A stretch of DNA of 64,000 nucleotides, from assembly GCA_027344105.1 (NCBI GenBank), contig DAHWJO010000001.1:10939-74938 (forward strand), in the 5' to 3' direction. How positions within the stretch are numbered: the stretch's first letter is position 1; each line of letters opens with the position of its first letter. A program made the translations under genes and the position numbers. Below the pieces are notes generated by a model that worked only from the letters and a program-made list of their open reading frames with translations, was not told the DNA's origin and searched no databases. Shown here in pieces: positions 10,061 to 51,799 of the stretch. Source of the DNA: Sulfobacillus sp. Its GTDB lineage: Bacteria > Bacillota > Sulfobacillia > Sulfobacillales > Sulfobacillaceae.

Positions 10061-13000
10061 ATGGCTTATCCTCTCCAAGCCGAGCACCCGCAGCGGGTGT
10101 CTTTTGCGCGCATCAACGAAGTTCTTGACATGCCCAATCTTATTGAGATTCAGCAGAATTCGTACCAGTGGTTTCTGCGCGAAGGATTGCGGGAGATGTT
10201 CCGCGACATCTCCCCTATTCAAGATTTTACTGGCAATCTGATTTTAGAGTTTGTGGATTACAATTTGAAGACCCCAAAATATTCGGTGGAAGAGTGTAAA
10301 GCCCGGGACGTGACCTTTGCAGCTCCTCTGCACGTGCGTGTGCGCCTGATTAACAAAGAGACCGGAGAGGTCAAGGAACAAGATGTTTTCATGGGGGATT
10401 TTCCGCTCATGACGGACAAAGGGACCTTTATCATCAATGGCGCCGAGCGGGTGATTGTCTCCCAATTAGTGCGCTCCCCTGGCGTTTACTTCGGCGAGCA
10501 GATTGACCCGTCGGGCAAGCGGCTGTATTTTGCGACCATGATTCCGAACCGGGGAGCCTGGCTGGAATTTGAATCCGATTCCAACGATGTTTTGTCGGTG
10601 CGGATAGACCGCACCCGGAAACTGCCCGCCACCATTCTGCTCAGGGCTCTCGGCTTTGGCACGGATGCGCAGATTATTGAGGCGGTCGGGGACGACGAGC
10701 GCATCCAGACCACTCTGTCCAAGGACGCGGCCAAGACCCAAGAGGAAGCGCTGATCGAGATCTACAAGCGCTTGCGCCCCGGTGAGCCCCCTACCGTAGA
10801 GAGTGCGCAGAGCCTGCTGCAGTCGCTGTTTTTTGATGCCAAGCGCTACGATCTGGCAAACGTGGGCCGCTACAAATTCAACAAGAAGCTCTCCCTGCGG
10901 CGCCGCATTGTGGGCACAACGGCGATGGAGACTATTGTCCACCCTGACACCGGGGAAATACTGGCCCGCGAAGGCGACCATATTGAGCGGGAGCAGGCCA
11001 TTGCGTTGGACGCGGCCAAGGTCAAGACCATTCATGTCGGGCTCGCCAATGGCGAAGAAGTCATGGTGGTGTCCAACGGGCAGCCTGACGGCACTGTGAA
11101 AACGGTCACCCGTGAAGATATTGTAGCCTGTTTCAACTATTTGACGACCCTGTTTGAGGGGATCGGGACCACGGACGATATCGACCATTTGGGCAATCGC
11201 CGCCTGCGTTCGGTAGGGGAACTGCTGCAAAACCAGTTTCGGGTCGGTCTCAGCCGCATGGAGCGGGTGGTGCGTGAGCGGATGACAATTCAGGACATTG
11301 AGTCCATCACCCCCCAGGCTCTGATCAATATCCGCCCAGTCGTGGCTGCCGTGAAGGAGTTTTTCGGGTCTTCCCAGCTCTCGCAGTTTATGGACCAGAC
11401 CAATCCTCTGGCGGAGCTCACCCACAAGAGGCGGCTTTCCGCTCTGGGGCCGGGCGGTCTCTCGCGTGAGCGGGCAGGATTTGAAGTGCGCGATGTCCAC
11501 CATTCCCATTATGGGCGCATGTGCCCCATTGAGACCCCAGAAGGTCCCAACATCGGTCTGATCGGATCCTTGTCCACATTTGCCCGCATCAATGCCTATG
11601 GCTTTATCGAGACGCCCTACCGCAAGGTTGACAAAGACCATGGCCGGGTCACGGATGAGATTGTTTACCTGACGGCCGACGAAGAAGATGACACCGTTAT
11701 TGCCCAGGCCAACGAGCCGTTAAGCGATGACGGCCATTTCGTGGCTCCACGGGTCACGGTGCGCTCGCGCCATGAGATTCTGGAAGAGACGCCGGAACGG
11801 GTCGACTACATGGATGTCTCGCCAAAGCAGGTGGTCTCGATTGCCACGGCGCTGATTCCCTTTCTGGAACATGACGATGCCAACAGGGCTTTGATGGGCG
11901 CCAACATGCAGCGGCAGGCGGTGCCTTTGCTGGTGCCCGACTCTCCGGTTGTGGGCACAGGCATGGAGGCCAAGGCGGCGCGGGACTCCGGCGTGGTCAG
12001 CATCAGTGAAAAGGACGGGGTGATCGACCGCATCCAGGCCGACCAGATTACCGTGAAAAATGATGACCACACCATGTCCACGTACAAACTGCTCAAGTTC
12101 ACGCGGTCCAACCAGGGCACGTGCATCAATCAGAAGCCCATTGTGCGCAAGGGGCAGCGTGTAGAGGCAGGGGAGATCATTGCGGATGGTCCGTCGACCG
12201 ACAAGGGCGAATTGGCCCTAGGCCGCAATGTGGTGGTGGCCTTCATGCCATGGGAAGGCTACAACTACGAAGATGCGATTCTTCTCAGTGAAAAACTGGT
12301 CAAGAATGACGTATTTACGTCGATTCACATTGAAGAATATGAATGTGATGCCCGTGATACGAAACTCGGACCAGAAGAAATCACGCGCGACATTCCCAAC
12401 GTCGGAGAAGAAGTGCTCAAAGACCTTGACGATCGCGGCATTATCCGCATCGGCGCCGAGGTCCGGCCAGGCGATGTGCTCGTGGGCAAGGTCACCCCGA
12501 AAGGGGAGACAGAGCTCACCGCAGAGGAGCGCCTTCTGCGCGCTATTTTCGGCGAGAAGGCCCGTGAAGTCCGTGACACCTCGTTGCGTGTACCCCACGG
12601 CGAGTCAGGGATCATCGTGGATGTGAAGGTGTTTACCCGTGACCAGGGAGACGAACTGTCGCCTGGCGTGAATCAGCTGGTCCAGGTGTACATCGCGCAG
12701 AAACGGAAGATTTCGGAAGGCGACAAAATGGCTGGGCGGCATGGGAACAAAGGGGTCATTTCCCGCATTCTCCCTGAAGAGGATATGCCGTTCCTTCCAG
12801 ACGGAACTCCCGTGGAAATTGTGCTGAATCCACTGGGCGTGCCAAGCCGGATGAATATCGGACAGGTTCTAGAGACCCACTTGGGCTGGGCGGCGCGGGC
12901 GCTGGGGATGAAGGTGGCGACCCCGGTCTTTGACGGGGCCCGTGAAGAAGACCTCACCCGCATGTTTCAGGACGCGCACCTGCCGGCCTCCGGGAAGACT

Positions 13001-13705
13001 CCCCTGTACGATGGGCGGACCGGGGAAGCCTTTGACAACGAGGTGACGGTGGGAGTGGTTTACATGCTCAAACTGGCCCACCTGGTGGACGACAAGATTC
13101 ATGCCCGGTCCACGGGACCCTACTCGCTGGTGACGCAGCAGCCATTGGGGGGCAAAGCCCAGTTCGGCGGGCAGCGTTTTGGAGAAATGGAAGTGTGGGC
13201 GCTGGAGGCCTATGGGGCTGCTTACACCCTGCAGGAATTGCTGACAGTCAAATCCGACGACGTGGTTGGGCGGGTGAAGACCTACGAGGCTATTGTCAAA
13301 GGGGAGAACGTCCCCGAGCCTGGGGTGCCGGAGTCCTTCAAGGTCCTCATTAAAGAACTGCAGAGTCTTGGTCTGGATGTCAAAATCCTCAACGAGAATG
13401 ACGAGGAAATCGAGATGCGGGAATTGGACGATGAACCGGCTAATGACCAGCGGACATTTGATCTCCTGCCGGAGGCCATTGAGGAGACGGAGGGCCAGGA
13501 CTTGCACCGTCTCATGGAAGACACAGAGGGTGGCAGGCCCGAAGAGTTTGCTCCGGGACGCGGCATGAACTTCGACGAGCAGGCAGAAAACGCCTATGCG
13601 ATTCTCCGCAAGGGGTCCGAGGACTCTGAGTTCGATGAACCGCCCGATGAAGGCAGCAGCGAAGACCCGGACGGAGATGGCAGCGGAGACGGCGAGGATT
13701 ACTAG
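10061..13705 (+). CDS. rpoB: RNA polymerase beta subunit
   Basis: 1214 aa; [33 protein letters not shown]. Confidence 0.99.
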
Positions 13706-13725: not shown

Positions 13726-16700
13726 ATGTTAGATGTAAACCACTTTGACTCGATGCGCATTGCTCTGGCATCTCCTGAACAGATACGGGAATGGTCAAAA
13801 GGTGAAGTGAAAAAGCCGGAAACGATCAATTACCGGACACTGAAGCCTGAGCGTGAAGGACTGTTCTGCGAGAAGATTTTTGGACCGACCAAGGACTGGG
13901 AGTGCCATTGCGGAAAGTATAAGCGCGTTCGCTATAAAGGGGTGGTTTGCGACCGTTGCGGTGTGGAGGTCACGCGGTCTAAGGTGCGCCGGGAGCGCAT
14001 GGGCCACATAGAACTGGCCGCTCCCGTGTCCCACATCTGGTACTTCAAAGGCATCCCGTCGCGCATGGGCCTGATTCTGGACATGTCGCCCCGGGCCTTG
14101 GAGAAAGTGCTGTACTTTGCCGCTTATGTGGTCATTGAGCCGGGAACGACCCCGCTGATGAAAAAGCAGCTCCTGGTCGAGTCGGAATACCGGGAGTACC
14201 GGGAGAAGTATGGTTCCCATTTCCGCGCCGGCATGGGAGCGGAAGCGGTCAAAGAGCTGTTGGCGGAACTTGACCTGGAGGGTCTCTCGCAGGAACTGCG
14301 CGGGGAGCTCAACAGTTCGTCGGGCCAGCGCCGTATCCGCGCCATCCGCCGTCTGGAAGTGGTGGAGGCATTCCGGCAGTCGGGCAACCGTCCCGACTGG
14401 ATGATTCTTGATGTCATTCCGGTCATTCCCCCGGACCTGCGGCCCATGGTGCAACTTGACGGAGGGCGGTTTGCCACCTCCGATCTGAACGACCTGTACC
14501 GCCGGGTTATCAACCGCAACAACCGTCTCAAAAGGCTCTTGGACCTTGGCGCGCCGGACATTATTGTCCGAAACGAAAAGCGGATGCTGCAAGAGGCTGT
14601 TGATGCTCTGATTGACAACGGCCGCCGCGGCCGTCCGGTGACCGGTCCAGGCAACCGTCCCCTCAAGTCGCTGTCCGACATGCTGAAGGGCAAGCAGGGC
14701 CGGTTCCGCCAGAACCTTTTAGGGAAGCGGGTCGATTACTCGGGCCGTTCGGTGATTGTGGTGGGGCCGAAGCTGAAAATGCATCAGTGCGGTCTGCCTA
14801 AAGAGATGGCGCTTGAACTGTTCAAGCCGTTTGTGATGAAGAAGCTGGTGAACGAGGGCTATGCCCACAATATCAAATCCGCCAAGCGCATGGTGGAACG
14901 AGTCCGGCCCGAGGTCTGGGATGTGCTGGAAGACGTCATTAAAGAGCACCCCGTGCTCTTGAACCGGGCGCCAACTTTGCACCGCCTGGGAATTCAGGCC
15001 TTTGAGCCTGTGCTGGTGGAAGGCCGGGCGATTCAAATTCACCCGCTGGTCTGCACAGCCTACAACGCTGACTTTGATGGCGACCAAATGGCCGTGCATG
15101 TGCCGCTGTCGGCGGAGGCGCAGTCGGAAGCCCGCGTGCTGATGCTGTCGACGCAGAACATCCTCAACCCGAAAGACGGGCAGCCTGTGGTCACGCCGAC
15201 CCAGGACATGGTGCTGGGCTCCTACTACCTGACGATGGATAAAGAAAACGTCAAAGGCGAGGGCATGATCCTCGCTGACCTGGCCGAGGGCGAGATGGCC
15301 TATTCGCAGGGAGTACTGGATTTGCATGCCCGCATTACCATGCGCTATGACGGAGTCAAGCAGGTATCGACCCTGGGCCGCTTCCTCTTTAACGACGCGC
15401 TTCCGCAGGGACTGCGCTTCATTGACCACACGGTGGGCCGGAAGGCACTGGCCACTATTGTGGCCAATCTGTTCCGCACCTACGGCAACGATATCACTGC
15501 GGAGACGCTGGACCGGATCAAAGCCTTGGGCTTCAATTTCGCCACCAAGGCCGGAGTGACGATTGCGGTGTCGGATATCGTCATTCCCGGCGCCAAAAAG
15601 CAGATCCTCGCGGACGCGGAGGAAGAGGTGCTGCAGGTTACCCGTCAGTACCGCCGAGGCCTGATCACGGGGGACGAGAGGTATGAACGCGTCATCGGCA
15701 TCTGGACCCGGGCTAAGGAACGGGTGACTCAGGCGCTCATGGATACGCTGGACAAGAACAACTCGGTCTACATGATGGCGACGTCAGGGGCCCGTGGTAA
15801 CGTGCAGCAAATCTCACAGCTGGCGGGAATGCGCGGGCTGATGGCCGACCCGTCAGGACGCATTATCGAACTGCCAATCCGGGCAAACTTCCGGGAAGGG
15901 CTGACCGTGCTCGAATATTTCACGTCGACTCACGGCGCCCGCAAGGGACTCGCCGACACCGCGCTCCGGACCGCAGACTCGGGCTATCTGACGCGCCGCC
16001 TGGTGGACGTGGCCCAAGATGTGATTGTGCGGGAAATGGACTGCGGCACGACTCAGGGCACCCTGGTCTCGGAGATCAAAGACGGCGGGCAAACTATCGA
16101 GGGGCTCTATGACCGCTTGGTCGGGCGTGTGGTTCCCGAAGATGTGCGCCATCCGGAAACGGGCGCGCTGATTATCCAGGCCAACGAGATTATTATGGAG
16201 GATATTGCCCAGGAGATTGTGGATGCCGGGATTAAGGAACTGAGAGTCCGGTCTGTGCAGACGTGCCAGTCCAGGTTTGGCGTGTGTGTGGCCTGTTACG
16301 GCCGCAACCTGGCGCGCGGGGGCATCGTGGAGGTTGGTGAGGCCGTTGGCATCATCGCCGCCCAGAGCATCGGCGAACCGGGAACGCAGCTCACTATGCG
16401 CACCTTTCACATGGGCGGCGTGGCCGGGGACGACATCACCCAAGGTCTGCCCCGTGTTGAGGAGCTGTTTGAGGCGCGCAAGCCCAAAGGCCAGGCCATT
16501 ATTGCGGAGGCGTCCGGAACCGTGAAGATCGGTGAAAACAAGGGACGCCGTGAAATCACCGTCATTCACGATGAGCAGAGCGAGGCCCAGGCCTATATGG
16601 TCCCATTCGGCTCCCGCATCAAGGTGCATGACGGGGACCACATCGCAGAGGGTGGGGAGCTGACCGAAGGCTCGGTCAACCCGCACGACCTCTTGCGGGT

Positions 16701-17199
16701 GCTCGGGCTCCGCGGGGTTCAGAACTACCTGCTTCAAGAAGTTCAGCGCGTCTACCGGCTGCAGGGTGTCGATATTAATGACAAGCACATTGAGGTCATG
16801 GTCCGCCAGATGATGCGGAAAGTGAAAATCGAGGAAGCCGGAGATACCGGGCTCCTTCCCGGCGCTTTGGTAGACCGGTTCGACTTTGAGGACCAGAACG
16901 CGGATGTGCTCATGCGCGGGGGCACCCCGGCAGTGGCTAAGCCCGTGGTTCTGGGAATCACCAAAGCCTCTCTGGCGACCGATTCGTTCCTGTCAGCGGC
17001 GTCTTTCCAAGAAACCACCCGGGTTCTGACCGAGGCCTCGATCAAGGCCAAGAGGGACCCGCTGCTTGGCCTCAAGGAAAACGTGATCATCGGCAAGCTG
17101 ATTCCAGCAGGCACAGGCATGTCGCGATATCGCAACGTGGTGATCGAAGGGGCGGACGACCCCGCGACGGCACCGTTCGAGAACGAACTGATCAAGTAG
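13726..17199 (+). CDS. rpoC: RNA polymerase beta' subunit
   Basis: 1157 aa; NADFDGD active site, Zn-binding Cys motifs. Confidence 0.99.
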
Positions 17200-44592: not shown

Positions 44593-44666
44593 TCCGGACT
44601 CGGCCGCGGTGTTCCGTGCCGTAAACTTTATCCCCCCTGGGGGCATATGTGAGGAGAGATTAATCC

Positions 44667-45356
44667 GTGAAGCAAAGTCGAGTCATTCTCATTAACGTGT
44701 TGATCATTGTGGCTTTAATATTGATAGGGGGGATTGTCGCCTATTACTGGACCCAGAGCTACGACTACGTGTCGACGCAGGACGCGGCGATTTCTGCCCC
44801 TACCATTCCTATTGCCGCGCAAAGCAACGGAACGGTGCAAGACTTGTCAGTGGCCGTCGGCCAGCGGGTCAGCCAGGGCCAGACGATTGCGCAAGAGACG
44901 GTGGCGGCAGCACCGGTCACCACCGCCAAGGGGAGCAAGACCACAGCGGCTGCGGGCACGACCCTCATCAACATCACAGCGCCAGTCGCCGGCTACGTGG
45001 CTAACGTCTCTGTGGCAAACGGGCAGGCCGTGGCTGCGGGAACGCCGCTCTTCACATTGGTCCAGCTCTCGAAGGTCAATGTGATCGCGAACATTCCGGA
45101 AACAAAAATTCGGAACGTATCCGTGGGGCAGAGCGCGACGATCTACGTGGATGCGCACCCAGGAGTGTCGTTTACCGGCACCGTCGAAGCGATGCAGCCT
45201 ACCACGCAGTCATTCTTTTCGCTGATTCCCACCGCGGCCACGTCGGGAACCTATACCAAAGTCACGCAGCGGGTGCCGGTGGAACTGTCCATTGACGCGG
45301 CGGGCTATTCCCTGCTGCCCGGCGAAGATGCAGAAGTGCGGATTACCATTCATTAA
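44667..45356 (+). CDS. Short EmrA/HlyD-type adaptor 2
   Basis: YVSTQDA, ITAPVAG, GTYTKVTQRVPV, LLPG. Confidence 0.9.
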   Translation: MKQSRVILINVLIIVALILIGGIVAYYWTQSYDYVSTQDAAISAPTIPIAAQSNGTVQDLSVAVGQRVSQGQTIAQETVAAAPVTTAKGSKTTAAAGTTLINITAPVAGYVANVSVANGQAVAAGTPLFTLVQLSKVNVIANIPETKIRNVSVGQSATIYVDAHPGVSFTGTVEAMQPTTQSFFSLIPTAATSGTYTKVTQRVPVELSIDAAGYSLLPGEDAEVRITIH

Positions 45357-45416
45357 CGGGGAAACCTCTAGCCACCGTGCCGCCGGAACCCTATGATGAA
45401 AGCGAGGAGGCGGGCT

Positions 45417-46271
45417 ATGCGCATTCTGATCACAGGGGGGACCGGTTATCTCGGGCAGGCCGTGGAGCAGGCTTTGCACCGCCATCATCACGACGTTGTC
45501 GTGCTCGCCCGGCGCTGCCCAGCGGCGCGGGTGGAGGGGTGCGTGGCCGGGGATATCAGTACGGCGGACCTCTCCCGCCTGTTCCAGGGATTCGACGGTG
45601 TGGTGCATCTTGTTGGCATCATCCAGGAACACCGCTCGCAGGGGATTACGTTTGATAAGATTCACCGCCAGGCAACGAAACGCGTGGTGGACGCCATCGC
45701 GGGGGCCGGGGTGCCGCGGCTTGTGCATATGTCTGCGCTGGGCACGCGCGAAGGCGCCGCCAGCCAGTACCACCTGACCAAATGGCAGGCTGAGCAGTAT
45801 GTTCGGGCCTCCTCGTCACAGTGGACTATTCTGCGGCCTTCCCTGCTGTTTGGGGGAGGGTCTCCTTTTTTTGCGACCCTTGAGAGTCAGGTCCGGTGGC
45901 CACTCGTGCCCGTTCCCGGGTCGGGAAAAACCCTGTTCCAGCCAGTGGCCAGAGACGATGTGGCGGAGCTTGTCGCCCAATTGGTTGAGGGATCCCAGGC
46001 AGTCGGGCAGACATGGGAGGTGGGGGGGCCCGACCGCTATAGCCTGAATGCGCTGTACCGCCGTGTGGCACTGGCGGTGGGGCGTGACAATCTATCTTTG
46101 GCGCACATTCCCCTCGGTGCCCTGATGCTGGCCGCACGACTTGGACAGAATGTGCCTGGGTTCCCCGTCAGCGTGGACCAACTCCTGATGCTCAATGAGC
46201 CGAATATCACCAGCGATGAGAGGTGGCGGCAACTGGTCCCGGAGGCGCGCAAGATGGGGACGGATCTTTAA
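45417..46271 (+). CDS. Atypical SDR / NAD-dependent epimerase (NDUFA9-like)
   Basis: ITGGTGYLG, HLVGII, YHLTK, LRPSL. Confidence 0.9.
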   Translation: MRILITGGTGYLGQAVEQALHRHHHDVVVLARRCPAARVEGCVAGDISTADLSRLFQGFDGVVHLVGIIQEHRSQGITFDKIHRQATKRVVDAIAGAGVPRLVHMSALGTREGAASQYHLTKWQAEQYVRASSSQWTILRPSLLFGGGSPFFATLESQVRWPLVPVPGSGKTLFQPVARDDVAELVAQLVEGSQAVGQTWEVGGPDRYSLNALYRRVALAVGRDNLSLAHIPLGALMLAARLGQNVPGFPVSVDQLLMLNEPNITSDERWRQLVPEARKMGTDL

Positions 46272-46296
46272 AACCGGGGCGCATGCCCATCATTTC

Positions 46297-46725
46297 TCAA
46301 AGGAACTCTCTTTGGTGATCGAGCAGGTGGTCGATTTTGGTATGGCCGTAGTAGTCGAGCCACGAAGGAAAAGGGGCATGGCAGTCGGGGCACGTGCGAA
46401 ACGCCCGGGCCGGAAACAGCTTGTGCGCCTGAGCCTCGTCATCGGGAGTGGCCAGAGCCCCGTTGATGCCAATGGTGAGCAGGGCCAAAGCCCGCTGGTA
46501 GAGGAGCGGTCCGTAGCCCCTGTGGTCAGTGACAAACAGCTCCCAGTAAACCACCGCGCCGTCTGACACCCGGTAGAATGGATAAAGGGTCGGAACGCGG
46601 GGGACCGTCCAACTCACGTCAAGATGGTGATGGACCATCTCCGCCAAGCTGGGGCTGCTCAAAGAGGCCTCGACAAGAGTATTGACGAGTTTGCGCAGTG
46701 AATAGGTTGCCAACATTTTTCTCAT
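46297..46725 (-). CDS. Hypothetical protein with C-terminal classical C2H2 zinc finger
   Basis: Start ATG 46725 after SD AGAGGA; CPDC-HAP-F-PSWLD-Y-YG-H-TKID-H. Confidence 0.75.
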   Translation of the reverse strand: MRKMLATYSLRKLVNTLVEASLSSPSLAEMVHHHLDVSWTVPRVPTLYPFYRVSDGAVVYWELFVTDHRGYGPLLYQRALALLTIGINGALATPDDEAQAHKLFPARAFRTCPDCHAPFPSWLDYYGHTKIDHLLDHQREFL

Positions 46726-47003
46726 GGCCGTTCCTCTCTTTCTTTGGGAGTGCGGCGTTGCCGCAACAAGGACAGGGCAATTCGCCGGGGAGCGCATTTT
46801 CCACCAATATACGAAACGATGGGCTGCCTGATGATCACCCCCCTCTTTTTACCAATGAGCAAGATGCCACCGATTAGAAGCCGTGAAGGCCGGTTCCCAC
46901 CCATTGCTGCGGAGAACCCCGTCGCACTGTCTTGCGGGCGCGCCATATAATAGTGGCAGAACAGCATGGAGAAGGCAGTACATTGCAATGGGGGGGAGCG
47001 CTG

Positions 47004-47627
47004 ATGACATCCCGGCAAGCTTTAGTGAAGAGCGCCCAGCGCTGGGAGACCGCTTCGGCGATCTGGATGGTGCTGGAGGCGGCAGGCGCTCTCACCGCGG
47101 GTTGGCGGTCCCATTCGGTGGCGCTGGGAGGATTTGGGGCTGACAGCTTGATTGAGCTGCTGTCAGCCGGGGTTCTTCTTTGGCGTCTGCACCGGGAACT
47201 GGTTGCGCCCGACTCTGAAGACGCTGGGCGAGTTGAGCGCCAGGCGGCGCGGGTTTCTCTTTTTCTGCTGACTATTCTGGCCGCCGTTCTGGTGATATCC
47301 GCCGCCGCAGCCTTTTGGCGTCATATCCCGGAGAGTCCCTCCCCGCTCGGTCTGATGATCACCGCCGTGTCGAGCGTGCTCATGATCGTGTTTGCCCGCG
47401 CGAAGCGGCGCTTGGGCATTGCGCTGGGGAGCCAGGCACTGCAGGCGGACGCGGTGGAAGGCTGGGTCTGCGCCTACATGGCCTGGGCTGCATTGGGCGG
47501 TACGGCTGCGGTCATGCTGTTTCACTGGGGTTGGGCAGATTCCTTGGCCGCGCTGCTCATTGCCTATTGGGTAGGCAAAGAAGTGTGGGAGATCCGCGAA
47601 GAGCTTGAAGAAAAAAAGCCAGAGTGA
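47004..47627 (+). CDS. CDF-family cation efflux protein lacking the C-terminal domain (TMEM163-like)
   Basis: GFGADSLIELLSA and LQADAVEGWVC metal-site helices, WGWAD; about 6 TM. Confidence 0.8.
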   Translation: MTSRQALVKSAQRWETASAIWMVLEAAGALTAGWRSHSVALGGFGADSLIELLSAGVLLWRLHRELVAPDSEDAGRVERQAARVSLFLLTILAAVLVISAAAAFWRHIPESPSPLGLMITAVSSVLMIVFARAKRRLGIALGSQALQADAVEGWVCAYMAWAALGGTAAVMLFHWGWADSLAALLIAYWVGKEVWEIREELEEKKPE

Positions 47628-47650
47628 GCCGTCCGGGCCGCCTGCTGGTG

Positions 47651-48346
47651 TCAGGAAGTGGGCCCGGACACTCCGGTCCCCCGTGTGGCGATATCTTGGA
47701 TTCTGGCCAGACTTTGCTTCCAGTTGACTTCAATGCACCGGACTGCTTCAGCCGCGTCGCGGCGGCGCAGGGCTTCTAGAATCGCATCATGTTCGGCTAA
47801 AGACTCACGCGATGACCACATCTCGTGGTAATAGGCGATTTCCACGCGGGACAGAGACGTCTTGAGTTGCCTCAAGGTCGCGCTAAGTTCAGGATTGCCC
47901 GCCTTATCAATGAACACGCGGTGAAAGAGGTCATCCGCTGAAGCGGCCAGGACGGCGTCGCGATCTTGAATAGCCTGGCTCAGCTGCTGATTGTATTGCT
48001 CCATTTGGGAGAAATCTTGGGAACTCCAGTCATCCAGAGAATTGACTGTGATGGAATAACTTTCCAACGTCCATATGATCGGGTAGCGGCGCATGACGCC
48101 TTCGATGTCGAGGGGAGCCACCTGGGTCCAGCGATTGGCTTTTGTGACGACCAGGCCTTCGGTTTCCAGGCGGAGCAGGGATTCCCGCACGGGAGTGCGG
48201 CTGACGCCGAACTCCTGGGCCAGTTCCTGATCGCGCAGAAATGTGCCCGGAGCCAAGTGGCCTTCAATGATCCACTGGCGCAGGCGCTGGTATACGGAAT
48301 CATTGACAAAACGGCGCCCAATAGGGCCGTCGTGGCGTGCGGTCAT
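47651..48346 (-). CDS. GntR-family regulator (FCD domain)
   Basis: LAQEFGVSRTPVRESL, D..FH, EHDAIL. Confidence 0.95.
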   Translation of the reverse strand: MTARHDGPIGRRFVNDSVYQRLRQWIIEGHLAPGTFLRDQELAQEFGVSRTPVRESLLRLETEGLVVTKANRWTQVAPLDIEGVMRRYPIIWTLESYSITVNSLDDWSSQDFSQMEQYNQQLSQAIQDRDAVLAASADDLFHRVFIDKAGNPELSATLRQLKTSLSRVEIAYYHEMWSSRESLAEHDAILEALRRRDAAEAVRCIEVNWKQSLARIQDIATRGTGVSGPTS

Positions 48347-48377
48347 TGCTCGGAGCCTCCCCGGTAGTTCAATGTGT

Positions 48378-48388
48378 TATACCGTATA
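48378..48388. promoter_or_regulatory. Candidate GntR operator
   Basis: Palindrome TATAC-C-GTATA 32 bp upstream of gntR. Confidence 0.45.
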
Positions 48389-48521
48389 TCACCTGTCCCG
48401 TGCCAGTCAAGACGGGCACAACCCGGTAATGGGCAGGGCCTGAACTGGGAGGGGGCCGGAGGGAGTTTCATGTCCTGCCTAACTGAAATTCCCCCGCATC
48501 CCCAATTTCCGGTCTTGCTGT

Positions 48522-49418
48522 TTAGGGCAGATCTTCCGCAATCTCGCCATAGGTGTCTGTGCGCCTGTCCCGGTAAAACTGCCAGTGCTCGCGCGCCTGC
48601 CGTATTTGCGACAGGTCCAGATCTGCTGTCACCAATGCATCGTGATTGCGCGGACCCTGCGCTACCGTCCGGCCCTCAGGGTCGCAGAAATAGCTCTCGC
48701 CGAAAAATTCGCCAATATTCCAGGGAGATTCCTCCCCGACGCGATTCAAAGCGCCCACAAAATAGCCATTAGCGATGGCGTGCGCCGCTTGTTCGATATG
48801 CCAGAGATGGTCGGCATGGCCAGCGGTAGTGGCGGAAGGGTTAAAGACGATCTCGGCGCCGTGCAATCCCAAAATGCGGGCGCCTTCCGGAAAGTGGCGG
48901 TCATAGCAGATATAGACACCGATTTTTCCCCACTGCGTGTCAAAAACCGGGTAGCCTAAATTGCCGGGCCGAAAGTAGAATTTTTCCCAAAATCCGTAGG
49001 CCCCTGGAGCGCTGCCGTGAACCTGAGGAATGTGGATCTTTCGGAACTTGCCCAGGTAGGTGCCGTCGGCGTCGATAACGGCTGCGGTATTGTAATAGAC
49101 CCCGGCCATGGCTTCCTCATACAGGGGAACGATCAGCACCATGCGGTAGTTTTTGGCCAGAGTCTTCATCAAAGTCACGGTGGGGCCATCTGGCACGGCT
49201 TCAGCCGCTTGGTACCACCGCCTGTCCTGTTCGGCCGCAAAGTAAGGGGCAAAGAACAGCTCCTGCAGGCATAAGACATTGACAGACTGAGCGGCGGCTT
49301 TCTTTATCCACTCTACGTGTTTTTCAATGGCAGCCTCCTTATGGACTGCGATATCCAGCTCTCCAGGCAATTCGTGATGCAACTGCAAGAGCCCTGCGCG
49401 CACTATCATCTGTTGCAC
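48522..49418 (-). CDS. Nitrilase-superfamily hydrolase, beta-ureidopropionase-like
   Basis: Glu-Lys-Cys triad (LQELF, RKIHIP, ICYDRHFPE); FWEKFYFRPGN, FYRDRR. Confidence 0.9.
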   Translation of the reverse strand: MQQMIVRAGLLQLHHELPGELDIAVHKEAAIEKHVEWIKKAAAQSVNVLCLQELFFAPYFAAEQDRRWYQAAEAVPDGPTVTLMKTLAKNYRMVLIVPLYEEAMAGVYYNTAAVIDADGTYLGKFRKIHIPQVHGSAPGAYGFWEKFYFRPGNLGYPVFDTQWGKIGVYICYDRHFPEGARILGLHGAEIVFNPSATTAGHADHLWHIEQAAHAIANGYFVGALNRVGEESPWNIGEFFGESYFCDPEGRTVAQGPRNHDALVTADLDLSQIRQAREHWQFYRDRRTDTYGEIAEDLP

Positions 49419-49424
49419 TCCTCC

Positions 49425-49463
49425 ATTGATTTCGTATAGTATGTAGTATATTATACGATCAAT
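49425..49463. promoter_or_regulatory. Inverted repeat in the divergent promoter region
   Basis: TCGTATA-N13-TATACGA flanked by ATTGA/TCAAT. Confidence 0.5.
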
Positions 49464-49496
49464 CTCACTTAATCAAGGTCGAGGCAAAGGAGTCGG

Positions 49497-50717
49497 GTGC
49501 ATATGGCCAACACGGTGGAATGGATAGAGAACGTCCAGGCAGACTATCAGGATGTGCCGCTACTGGCGCATCTCACCCCTGCCATTGCGGAAGAAATCTT
49601 GGCTTACCACCGCACGTGGCCGGAATACCGGGAAACGCCGATGCATAGCCTGCCGCATCTGGCGGCTTATGCGGGGGTACGCAGCATTTATGTCAAAGAC
49701 GAAGCCAAGCGGTTTGGGATTCACTCATTTAAGATACTGGGTGGCACTTGGGCCGTTGCCCGCGCCTTGGCTGAACGCTGGCGTTTAGAAAGCCCTGTGA
49801 GCGCAAGCTCCCTAAAAGCCGCTGCGTCGTGGGCGCCTTGCGTGACCCTGGCGGCGGCCAGTGACGGAAATCACGGCATGGGAGTGGCGTGGACAGCCCG
49901 GGAACTCGGTCAGCGGGCGGTGATCTTTTTGCCTGCTGGCACCCGTTCGTCCCGTGTCGAGCGAATTGCTGCGCTGGGTGCCGAAGTGCATGTGACCGAC
50001 ATGAACTATGACGACACCGTGCAGCATGTGGCCCAGCAAGCCGCTGAGCACGGCTGGCTGCTGATCCAAGACACCTCGTGGCCAGGCTATGAGCAGATAC
50101 CCCGGTGGGTGACTCAAGGATACCTGAGCATGGCTCTGGAAGCTTTCCAGCAGTTGGGTGCCCAGGGGATGGAACCTCCCACGCACGTGATTTTGCAGGC
50201 AGGAGTGGGTTCCCTGGCCGCTGCCGTCACGGGGTTTTACGCGAATCGCTATGGGGCTGCCAACTGCCCCACCATTCTCATCGCCGAGCCAACCCTGGCG
50301 CCGGCGCTGTTGGAGTCGGCCCGCAGGTCAGATGGCCAGCTGGCAAAAATCGGGGGCCCGATGGAAACAGTGATGGCCGGGCTGGCCTGTGGGGAGCCTA
50401 ATCCCTTGGCGTGGCCGCTGCTGCGATCATGGGCCGGTTTCTTTGTGGCGTGCTCCGATTCTGTTGCCGCGCGCGGGACCCGCATTCTCTCCAATCCCCT
50501 TGGGGAGGATCCCAGAATTTTGGCCGGAGAGTCTGGAAGCATGCCGCTGGGCCTCTTGGTGTCGCTCATGGATGACCCGCGCTTCCATAAAGCCCGCGAG
50601 GCTTTTCGCCTGACATCCCAGTCGCGAATTCTCCTCTTCAATACCGAAGGCATCCCGGATCCCGGGCTGTTCTTGGATATTGTCTGGAACGGGGACTATT
50701 GCGCTGAACCAAAATAG
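49497..50717 (+). CDS. dpaL: Diaminopropionate ammonia-lyase (PLP)
   Basis: KDEA.RFG..SFKILGG, ASDGNHG, QDTSW.GY, QAGVGS, MAGLACGEP, GESG. Confidence 0.92.
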   Translation: MHMANTVEWIENVQADYQDVPLLAHLTPAIAEEILAYHRTWPEYRETPMHSLPHLAAYAGVRSIYVKDEAKRFGIHSFKILGGTWAVARALAERWRLESPVSASSLKAAASWAPCVTLAAASDGNHGMGVAWTARELGQRAVIFLPAGTRSSRVERIAALGAEVHVTDMNYDDTVQHVAQQAAEHGWLLIQDTSWPGYEQIPRWVTQGYLSMALEAFQQLGAQGMEPPTHVILQAGVGSLAAAVTGFYANRYGAANCPTILIAEPTLAPALLESARRSDGQLAKIGGPMETVMAGLACGEPNPLAWPLLRSWAGFFVACSDSVAARGTRILSNPLGEDPRILAGESGSMPLGLLVSLMDDPRFHKAREAFRLTSQSRILLFNTEGIPDPGLFLDIVWNGDYCAEPK

Positions 50718-50972: not shown

Positions 50973-51407
50973 ATGTCCACTTATATGGCCCGGTCTCAAG
51001 ACGTTGATCGCAACTGGTATGTGATTGACGCCGCCGGATTGCCGCTGGGTCGTGTTGCTACTGTTGCAGCAACATTGCTTCGCGGAAAGCATAAACCCAC
51101 ATATACCCCTCATGTTGATACAGGTGATTATGTGATCATTGTCAACGCTTCAACAGTACTATTGACTGGCCGCAAGCTGGATCAAAAAATTTATTTTCAT
51201 CATTCCGGGTACTTGGGCGGATTGAAGCGGACTGTCTACCGCCAGTTAATGCAAAAGAAACCCGCTTTCGTTATGGAAAAAGCCGTGCGCGGAATGCTTC
51301 CGCATAACCGTCTCGGTCGGGCGATGTACAAGAAGCTCAAAGTGTACGCACAGGGAGAACATCCTCACAGCGCACAGCAGCCGCAAGTATGGGAGGTTAA
51401 AATTTAA
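50973..51407 (+). CDS. rplM: 50S ribosomal protein L13
   Basis: [21 protein letters not shown]. Confidence 0.99.
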
Positions 51408-51799
51408 TGGCAGTTGCGCAATTCTGGGGAACAGGACGCCGCAAGAATGCCGTTGCGCGTGTTCGCTTGGTGCCAGGCACCGGCAGGGTTTTAATTAATG
51501 GGCGGGCGATGGAGGACTATTTTCCGCTTTTGACATTGCAAAAAGGGATAATGGCTCCTCTTAATTCGGTAGAGCTGGTAGGGCGGTTTGATGTCCTCGT
51601 GCGGGTTGAGGGTGGCGGGGTGTCGGGACAGGCTGGCGCGGTGCGTCACGGGATTGCGCGCGCTCTTCTGTTGGTCGATACGAATTTACGTGTATCTTTG
51701 AAGCAGCGGGGATTCTTAACACGGGACCCGCGTATGAAGGAACGGCGGAAATATGGATTGAAGAAGGCACGGAAAGCTCCGCAATTCTCAAAACGCTAA
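51407..51799 (+). CDS. rpsI: 30S ribosomal protein S9
   Basis: [18 protein letters not shown]. Confidence 0.99.

Follow-up and report, generated by a model that had tools for sequence, protein, structure and literature searches.

A predicted classical-type C2H2 zinc finger in a small two-domain protein of Sulfobacillus

The stretch of Sulfobacillus sp. DNA analysed here (64,000 nt of contig DAHWJO010000001.1, hereafter the window) carries on its reverse strand a gene (46297–46725, stop codon included) for a 142-aa two-domain protein, referred to below as the finger protein. The C-terminus of this protein contains a Cys2-His2 (C2H2) motif, C112-x2-C115-x12-H128-x4-H133 (46327–46392, reverse strand), predicted to fold as a beta-beta-alpha finger. 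The sequence, its conservation in 54 homologues, AlphaFold modelling and weak, in-register Pfam matches make it highly probable that this module is a zinc finger of the classical type and not of the Ros/MucR type. Its four invariant ligands are predicted to bind one structural Zn(II) ion. An earlier sequence-only reading of this DNA had drawn attention to the motif and had proposed either a zinc-sensing regulator paired with the divergent metal exporter beside it or a virus-derived finger protein. What it observed is confirmed and its interpretation is supported in part: the finger stands, the pair and the viral origin do not.

Classical C2H2 fingers are the commonest DNA-binding module of eukaryotes. 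In bacteria they are, to our knowledge, essentially uncharacterised, and the only bacterial family that we know to have been studied is Ros/MucR, which has another spacing and another fold. Classical-type fingers are rare in bacteria but on record, with classical C2H2 annotation on about 0.003% of bacterial proteins (PMC3541406), in line with the rarity asserted in the sequence-only reading. The nine-residue spacer that it attributed to Ros/MucR also agrees with the literature: the finger of that family follows the pattern C-x2-C-x9-H-x3-4-H, and the classical spacer has 12 residues (PMC9779718).

The finger protein and its family

The C-terminus of the 142-aa protein (...LFPARAFRTCPDCHAPFPSWLDYYGHTKIDHLLDHQREFL, containing C112, C115, F119, Y125, H128 and H133) reads C-x2-C-x3-F-x5-Y-x2-H-x4-H, exactly as described before (46392–46327), and fits the ligand pattern C-x2-4-C-x12-H-x3-5-H of classical fingers. 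The six-frame translation of the window contains the C2H2 pattern a single time. In composition-matched shuffles, 0.18 occurrences of the loose pattern were expected, and the strict pattern appeared in 0 of 50.

Conservation, which carries more weight than the chance estimate, was assessed in an alignment of 54 homologues that are 42–65% identical to the query. No substitution occurs at the four ligands (C112, C115, H128 and H133), at W122 or at F104, and F109, R110, Y126 and G127 are conserved in at least 90% of the sequences. The finger core is formed by F109 (53/54), F119 (39/54) and Tyr or Phe at position 125 (53/54), which is the hydrophobic core expected of classical fingers.

The Pfam models zf-C2H2 and zf-C2H2_4 match residues 111–133 in register, over profile positions 2–23 of 23. 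Among the finger-bearing members tested, zf-C2H2_4 matched 10 of 10 (best E = 0.0092) and zf-C2H2 six of 10; the zf-C2H2 models were the top families for these members and outranked every zinc-ribbon model. In an exhaustive search with a hidden Markov model (HMM) of the family, profile positions 103–133 also matched multi-finger proteins of the ...TCPHCxRTFTSRIGLVGHLRIH... type, in three to six stretches each. The ROS_MUCR profile (PF05443) gave no match at E up to 10 in 11 members. Together with the spacing C115-x12-H128, this bears out the classical-type assignment of the sequence-only reading.

The structure was predicted with AlphaFold. A first run with eight sequences was mediocre, with a predicted local distance difference test score (pLDDT) of 70. 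The run with the 54-sequence alignment reached an overall pLDDT of 92.2 and a predicted template modelling score (pTM) of 0.84 for the whole chain. The finger is modelled as a beta-beta-alpha unit with strands 110–111 and 118–119 and helix 122–132 (Zn not modelled), with both Cys residues on the hairpin and both His residues on the helix. The mean pLDDT over the 10-residue blocks covering residues 101–130 is 84–90.

Residues 1–103 (46417–46725, reverse strand) make up an orphan N-terminal domain with the predicted order beta-alpha-beta-beta-beta-alpha-alpha: strand 2–5, helix 7–20, a short helix 27–31, strands 36–40, 50–55 and 58–65, and helices 73–91 and 94–103. Confidence is high throughout (mean pLDDT 94–98 across 10-residue blocks of residues 1–100). 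The invariant residues are T7, N15, V18, P25-S26-L27, E29, H34, D67, A81-L82 and N88-G89, with T7, N15, S26, E29, H34, D67 and N88 forming the polar set, and SPSLAEMVxHHL is the best-conserved stretch apart from the finger. No relatives of this domain outside the family were found among 1.84 billion representative proteins, no Pfam or NCBIfam model matched it, and a profile search of the PDB sequences at E up to 10 gave no match. Foldseek searches of PDB and BFVD with the eight-sequence model returned nothing significant. With the 54-sequence model, the PDB matches were likewise all insignificant (best E 0.31, TM-score ≤0.3, probability ≤0.44). The N-terminal domain as modelled is likely a new fold. 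Resemblances to the nucleotidyltransferase, SRP14, double-stranded RNA-binding domain and vicinal oxygen chelate (VOC) folds, all insignificant, were kept as weak leads only, and matches to the giant proteins P0013, P0022 and P0026 were rejected as spurious, being due to short beta-strand repeats.

The family is neutral to acidic, with a median net charge of −2 (range −7 to +3) and an isoelectric point of about 6–7 in most members. In Krüppel-type fingers, DNA is read by helix positions −1, 2, 3 and 6. In the finger helix of this family these carry G/R/S, L, D and G; W, Y and Y stand, invariant or nearly so, at positions 1, 4 and 5. Judged from the sequences, such helix residues and charge are atypical of the DNA-binding subclass of fingers, though still compatible with binding. 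The conserved basic residues R11, K/R12, R41, R78, R/K84, R110 and K130 would allow for a surface that binds nucleic acid or phosphate.

A word-indexed search found seven homologues of the finger protein, and the exhaustive HMM search of the 1.84 billion proteins found only four family representatives. The profile-seeded search yielded 59 homologue clusters at 90% identity, nearly all of 135–149 aa and nearly all unnamed. The named members belong to S. thermosulfidooxidans, S. benefaciens and S. harzensis and to metagenome-assembled genomes (MAGs) labelled Firmicutes, Alicyclobacillaceae or Clostridia bacterium. A GTDB scan added S. thermotolerans Kr1, a S. acidophilus MAG and the species of the window itself (a Sulfobacillus sp. 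MAG from mine drainage). The host is thus a Firmicute, as the sequence-only reading had it: the window matches the Sulfobacillus sp. MAG, and every homologue belongs to Sulfobacillus or to a related MAG. The UniRef automatic name of the S. harzensis orthologue is 'C2H2-type domain-containing protein', so the motif was already visible to automatic annotation. P0011 (118 aa, on a contig of 1036 nt) and P0098 (127 aa) stand apart from the rest: one member is without the finger, its C-terminus diverging past residue 100, probably owing to a frameshift or a contig end, and one, from the Joint Genome Institute, carries the name 'diadenosine tetraphosphatase ApaH/serine/threonine PP2A family protein phosphatase'. 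No search supports this name, and it looks like a mis-annotation.

The comparison of sequences leaves practically no doubt that the open reading frame (ORF) is a genuine gene under strong purifying selection. The proportion of nonsynonymous differences (pN) is 0.07–0.09 while synonymous sites are saturated, and the ratio of nonsynonymous to synonymous rates (dN/dS) is 0.04 and 0.19 in the only two pairs for which it could be estimated. The ORF, its ribosome-binding site, the alignment of orthologues and the homologue clusters complete the picture. A Shine-Dalgarno sequence, GAGAGGA (AGAGAGGA; 46732–46738, reverse strand), with the core GAGG at 46736–46733, lies 6–7 nt before the ATG at 46725. 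The orthologues examined have the same aligned start with a GGAGG-like site ahead of it, except at locus L012, where no start codon was identified. A longer reading of the ORF, 166 aa from the ATG at 46797, was rejected because the orthologues align at the 142-aa start behind the Shine-Dalgarno sequence.

Chromosomal setting and the divergent exporter

The window contains the ribosomal super-operon (rpoB 10061–13705, rpoC 13726–17199, fusA, tuf ... rpoA, truA) followed by an island. Past truA come ProDH, MarR and an HlyD-MFS-HlyD efflux cluster (MFS, major facilitator superfamily) that is conserved across Sulfobacillus. Next to the finger gene lies a gene for an NmrA-like, NAD(P)-binding short-chain dehydrogenase/reductase (SDR, 'epimerase'; 45393–46271, forward strand), assigned by the Pfam models Epimerase, NAD_binding_10 and NmrA. 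The SDR gene is the most persistent neighbour: at essentially all loci with sufficient flanking sequence it is found less than about 3 kb from the finger gene. In the window the two genes are convergent, with a gap of 25 bp (46272–46296) in which no terminator-like hairpin was detected. A gene for an S-adenosylmethionine (SAM)-dependent methyltransferase stands between them in other species and is missing in the window.

The finger gene holds a fixed chromosomal place between truA/ProDH/MarR/SDR and rplM-rpsI. The latter pair (50973–51796, forward strand), recognised by tblastn with 87% identity to L13 and S9 of S. thermosulfidooxidans, is the ancestral upstream neighbour. With arrowheads for orientation, the arrangement in S. 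thermosulfidooxidans and S. benefaciens is ProDH-MarR-(unknown)-HlyD-MFS-HlyD-SDR> <methyltransferase <finger gene, then about 570 bp, then rplM> rpsI>. Deeper lineages have ProDH> MarR> SDR> (<methyltransferase) (ATP-binding cassette (ABC) transporter) finger gene> ... rplM> rpsI>. The neighbours on the promoter side vary by locus and include rplM, a PhoH-like gene, an MFS transporter, IS66, a methyltransferase, an ABC transporter and the SDR. The fixed position and the depth of divergence point to vertical descent; the finger gene is single-copy, vertically inherited and confined to Sulfobacillus and related acid-mine Bacillota.

Mobile elements repeatedly adjoin the finger gene or rplM at other loci. 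An IS607-type serine recombinase and TnpB occupy L019:7220–9073, where the 3′ end of tnpB carries a Transposase-2 RNA (Rfam RF03015, 64 bits); a resolvase and a Cas12f1-like TnpB lie at L001:1–1827, and IS66 lies at L012:959–3273.

In the window, four genes assigned by Pfam separate the finger gene from rplM. As rplM-rpsI is still present at 50973–51796, these genes are read as a block (46932–50717, mixed strands) inserted in this species between the finger gene and rplM, which face each other directly in S. thermosulfidooxidans and S. benefaciens. The block consists of genes for a cation diffusion facilitator (CDF; 47004–47627, forward strand), a GntR/FCD regulator (47651–48346, reverse strand), a nitrilase-like CN-hydrolase (48522–49418, reverse strand) and a PALP enzyme (49497–50717, forward strand).

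The CDF transporter has 207 aa if it starts at the ATG at 47004. The Pfam model Cation_efflux (PF01545) matches it with 51.6 bits (cut-off 26.6), and TIGR01297 with 62 bits, below its cut-off of 82. Its best solved relative is Shewanella YiiP/FieF, of which only residues 11–199 of 296 align. As nothing aligns to residues 200–296 and the protein ends about 10 residues past transmembrane helix (TM) 6, it lacks the C-terminal domain, as the sequence-only reading had claimed. In a phmmer alignment to YiiP, the site-A positions are D-x3-E in TM2 and E-x3-C in TM5; those of YiiP we take to be D-x3-D in TM2 and H-x3-D in TM5. The site-A quartet of this transporter is unusual.

The divergent gap of 278 bp (46726–47003, with the CDF start at 47004) is as previously described. 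The linkage is not conserved: at 27 other finger loci (about 20 distinct lineages), examined with Pfam on the annotated loci and with tblastn at E up to 1 on 29 loci (291 kb), no CDF gene was found, and the gene is present only in the window and in the conspecific MAG L013 (DAIDDL010000015.1). The finger protein of L013 is 100% identical to that of the window. Its CDF gene (L013:100–780, compared with 46990–47640 of the window) has a +1 insertion and a −1 deletion and is split into three ORFs, and the alignment of the two loci collapses about 170 nt upstream of the finger-gene ATG. This is either a decaying pseudogene with a recombination boundary or the result of assembly errors in the MAG. 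Very probably, the finger gene is functionally unpaired with the CDF gene, which would have arrived with the four-gene insertion in the species of the window only.

The TATAAT described as perfect is present upstream of the CDF gene (46946–46951, forward strand), but it has no acceptable −35 element: the hexamer 17 nt upstream, CGCACT, agrees with TTGACA in two of six positions, and a sigma-70 promoter scan of 46200–47700 found no site. No inverted repeat of at least 8 nt was found in 46700–47030. For the finger gene, a candidate −10 element TATATT may lie about 80 nt upstream of the ATG (46806–46811, reverse strand). The block around it, ATCGTTTCGTATATT, is conserved among the window, L013 and S. 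thermotolerans (L015); the candidate failed the strict promoter scan. Six deeper lineages have in common an extended −10 element, TG(A/C)TAGAAT (TGATAGAAT), 40–46 nt before the start, and its conservation suggests that a simple promoter belongs to the finger gene itself. When k-mers were used to look for a motif common to all orthologous upstream regions, only −10-like elements came up. In S. thermosulfidooxidans, S. benefaciens and relatives (L001:5600–5660, L003, L006 and L016), a conserved TGCAAn-17 nt-TATAAT block faces the gene about 340 nt upstream of its ATG and is kept in L006 despite the displacement of rplM. The block implies a partly conserved 5′ leader of about 330 nt, which no Rfam family matches. 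Near the finger gene, in the window and in six orthologous loci, the Rfam search gave no family and no L13 leader.

Proposed architecture, function and alternatives

We put somewhat better than even confidence in a composite explanation that joins the findings above to a zinc clasp and a guess at function. The protein would form one compact globule in which the alpha/beta N-terminal domain is capped by the C-terminal beta-beta-alpha C2H2 module. Residues F104, F109, W122, L123, Y125 and Y126 would pack the finger helix onto the N-terminal domain, and the zinc site would then clamp the larger fold as a clasp, as in the enlarged Ros domain, instead of presenting a free helix to the major groove. 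The clasp is suggested by these invariant aromatic and hydrophobic residues, which would hold the helix in place. It is preferred to a Krüppel-like DNA reader because the family is neutral to acidic and the would-be reading helix is dominated by hydrophobic residues. The N-terminus of the finger helix would be buried against the N-terminal domain, given W/Y/Y at helix positions 1, 4 and 5, the (near-)invariant F104 and F109 and the high whole-chain pTM. As to function, we tentatively guess at a small binding protein that would be expressed constitutively and act as a regulator or adaptor for a nucleic acid or protein partner. It would use R11, K/R12, R41, R110 and K130 together with the polar cluster T7/N15/S26/E29/H34/D67/N88.

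Several observations weigh against this explanation. The aromatic residue ahead of the first Cys stands at −3 and not at −2, and about one member in four has another residue in place of F119. The window protein scores below the Pfam gathering cut-offs (13.5 against 25.2 bits for zf-C2H2, 13.1 against 27 for zf-C2H2_4), and no single member tested attains the gathering score for zf-C2H2. The finger is formally not a member of Pfam zf-C2H2; of the HMM check proposed with the sequence-only reading, the in-register alignment held, including zf-C2H2_4 in 10/10 members, and the curated cut-off was not reached. The packing of the finger against the N-terminal domain is read from conservation and pTM, and the functional part is a guess because nothing indicates a ligand or target. 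In so narrow a clade, the lasting closeness to the NmrA-like SDR may reflect no more than synteny. Finally, the gene was found in no RNA run, and four metatranscriptome contig sets from the same studies had no coverage over 44600–48400, a result that is uninformative on the finger gene because the neighbouring genes are likewise uncovered.

The sub-threshold Pfam scores are also what would speak for the Cys/His pattern being a chance motif that binds no zinc. This is hardly credible, since the ligands and core residues do not vary across 54 sequences whose identity is otherwise 42–65%, the beta-beta-alpha prediction is confident and only 0.18 chance occurrences are expected per window. A reading that deserves more weight, though we consider it unlikely, keeps the finger as a purely structural element and takes the N-terminal domain for a dimerising ligand-binding or catalytic module of the VOC/glyoxalase/bleomycin-resistance kind (beta-alpha-beta-beta-beta), serving detoxification-type neighbours (MarR, MFS/HlyD efflux, the NmrA-like SDR and the SAM methyltransferase). 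It draws on the predicted order beta-alpha-beta-beta-beta, on many low-ranking Foldseek matches to FosA/FosX, glyoxalases and bleomycin-binding proteins, on the invariant E29, H34 and D67, which could form a metal or ligand site, and on the persistent proximity of SDR, methyltransferase and efflux genes. However, all these Foldseek matches are insignificant (E ≥0.3, TM-score ≤0.3, probability ≤0.44), no VOC Pfam model matches at E up to 10, and no operon is evident because the gene orientation and the intervening genes vary. Less probable still is an RNA-binding or ribosome-associated factor with an alpha-beta-beta-beta-alpha core and the finger, tied to the position between truA and rplM-rpsI. 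The ancestral site directly beside rplM-rpsI (163 nt upstream in L012), weak Foldseek neighbours that include SRP14 and DGCR8-type alpha-beta-beta-beta-alpha folds, and several conserved basic residues would fit such a role. Against it, the fold matches are insignificant, the protein as a whole is neutral to acidic, the Rfam search gave no element in the vicinity, and unrelated insertions break the neighbourhood in many lineages while the gene is kept.

The two interpretations offered by the sequence-only reading fare worse. A zinc-sensing transcription factor controlling the divergent CDF exporter would be in keeping with the head-to-head genes, the 278-bp gap, the TATAAT before the CDF gene, the metal-binding motif and an HHH run in the finger protein. 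It is nevertheless very improbable. No CDF gene accompanies the finger gene at the 27 other loci, so that the linkage on which the proposal depended fails; the CDF gene belongs to the insertion and is frameshifted in the conspecific MAG with the identical finger protein; and the intergenic region has neither an inverted repeat nor a scored promoter. A structural C2H2 site is, moreover, not a typical exchangeable sensing site, and no Pfam or NCBIfam model of the known metal-sensor families (ArsR/SmtB, MerR, Fur, CsoR, CopY, NikR, DtxR) matched the finger protein. Recent acquisition from a virus, an archaeal virus or a eukaryote appears equally doubtful. Classical C2H2 fingers are mostly eukaryotic and, in Crenarchaeota, virus-linked (PMC3541406), Sulfobacillus shares acidic habitats with such archaea, and IS66 and IS605/TnpB elements lie near the finger gene in some loci. 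Yet the IMG/VR contigs scanned contained no relatives of the finger protein, PHROGs gave only noise, BFVD gave no significant match (Foldseek, earlier eight-sequence model) and PADLOC, which covers defence systems, gave no match. The gene occupies the same chromosomal position, beside ribosomal-protein operons, throughout a clade that diverges to about 42% identity, and only the 23-residue finger resembles eukaryotic sequences, the N-terminal domain being unique.

A more specific version of the regulator idea, which we regard as improbable, would make the finger protein a bacterial counterpart of the fungal NmrA-AreA system. The NmrA-like SDR would sense the redox or dinucleotide state and bind the finger protein, and the two would control transcription, for example of the adjoining MarR/efflux island. 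If this were true, a classical-type finger in an unseen fold would act as a clade-wide bacterial regulator, with consequences for the question whether the beta-beta-alpha finger predates eukaryotes or originated independently of them. Whatever its role, the family is a clean case, with a 12-residue spacer, clade-wide conservation, vertical descent and a fused domain with a confidently predicted structure but no structural neighbour. It is therefore a tractable target both for the use of classical fingers in a bacterium and, as a likely new fold, for structural genomics. The family adds no new circuit of metal homeostasis.

Comparison with known systems

Known metal-sensor/exporter pairs include the ArsR/SmtB-type CzrA with a CDF transporter and the MerR-type ZntR with ZntA. 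The finger gene and the CDF gene share with them only the head-to-head geometry, and that in this one window. Unlike in those pairs, the two genes do not stay together across genomes, no operator palindrome is present and the finger protein lies outside the sensor families. The transporter on its own resembles the bacterial CDFs without a C-terminal domain that have already been described (PMC7926707), with a six-helix Cation_efflux membrane domain and no cytoplasmic C-terminal domain.

The finger resembles those of classical C2H2 proteins (PF00096/PF13894) in its spacing C-x2-C-x12-H-x4-H, in the aromatic residue at Cys2+4, in the hydrophobic residue at helix position 4 and in the predicted beta-beta-alpha fold. 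In contrast to classical DNA-reading fingers, it is a single C-terminal finger, apparently packed into a larger globule. The protein has no tandem fingers and no TGEKP-type linker, unlike classical arrays, and it is acidic to neutral; the helix carries G/R/S, L, D and G at positions −1/2/3/6 and invariant W/Y/Y at 1/4/5, where DNA-reading fingers differ.

With Ros/MucR (PF05443) the finger protein shares a bacterial single C2H2 site inside a larger globular domain with an extended hydrophobic core, as well as an extra His past the second ligand in some members (H137 in the window protein). It differs in the spacer (12 residues against nine), in giving no HMM match and in having no basic C-terminal region (PMC9779718). 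The hosts are Bacillota and not Alphaproteobacteria, and the N-terminal domain is unrelated.

The third comparison is with AFV1p06 (PDB 2LVH; PMC3541406), which has about 59 aa and Glu as the fourth ligand; the finger protein has, in contrast, a folded N-terminal domain of 100 residues and is encoded by a chromosomal gene. AFV1p06 was not matched by sequence or by fold in the searches of PDB sequences and in Foldseek searches of PDB. For the single classical fingers of archaea and archaeal viruses, it has been proposed that specific binding depends on partners (PMC3541406). Like AFV1p06, the finger protein combines a single classical-type finger with terminal extensions in a prokaryotic setting and an acidophile habitat.

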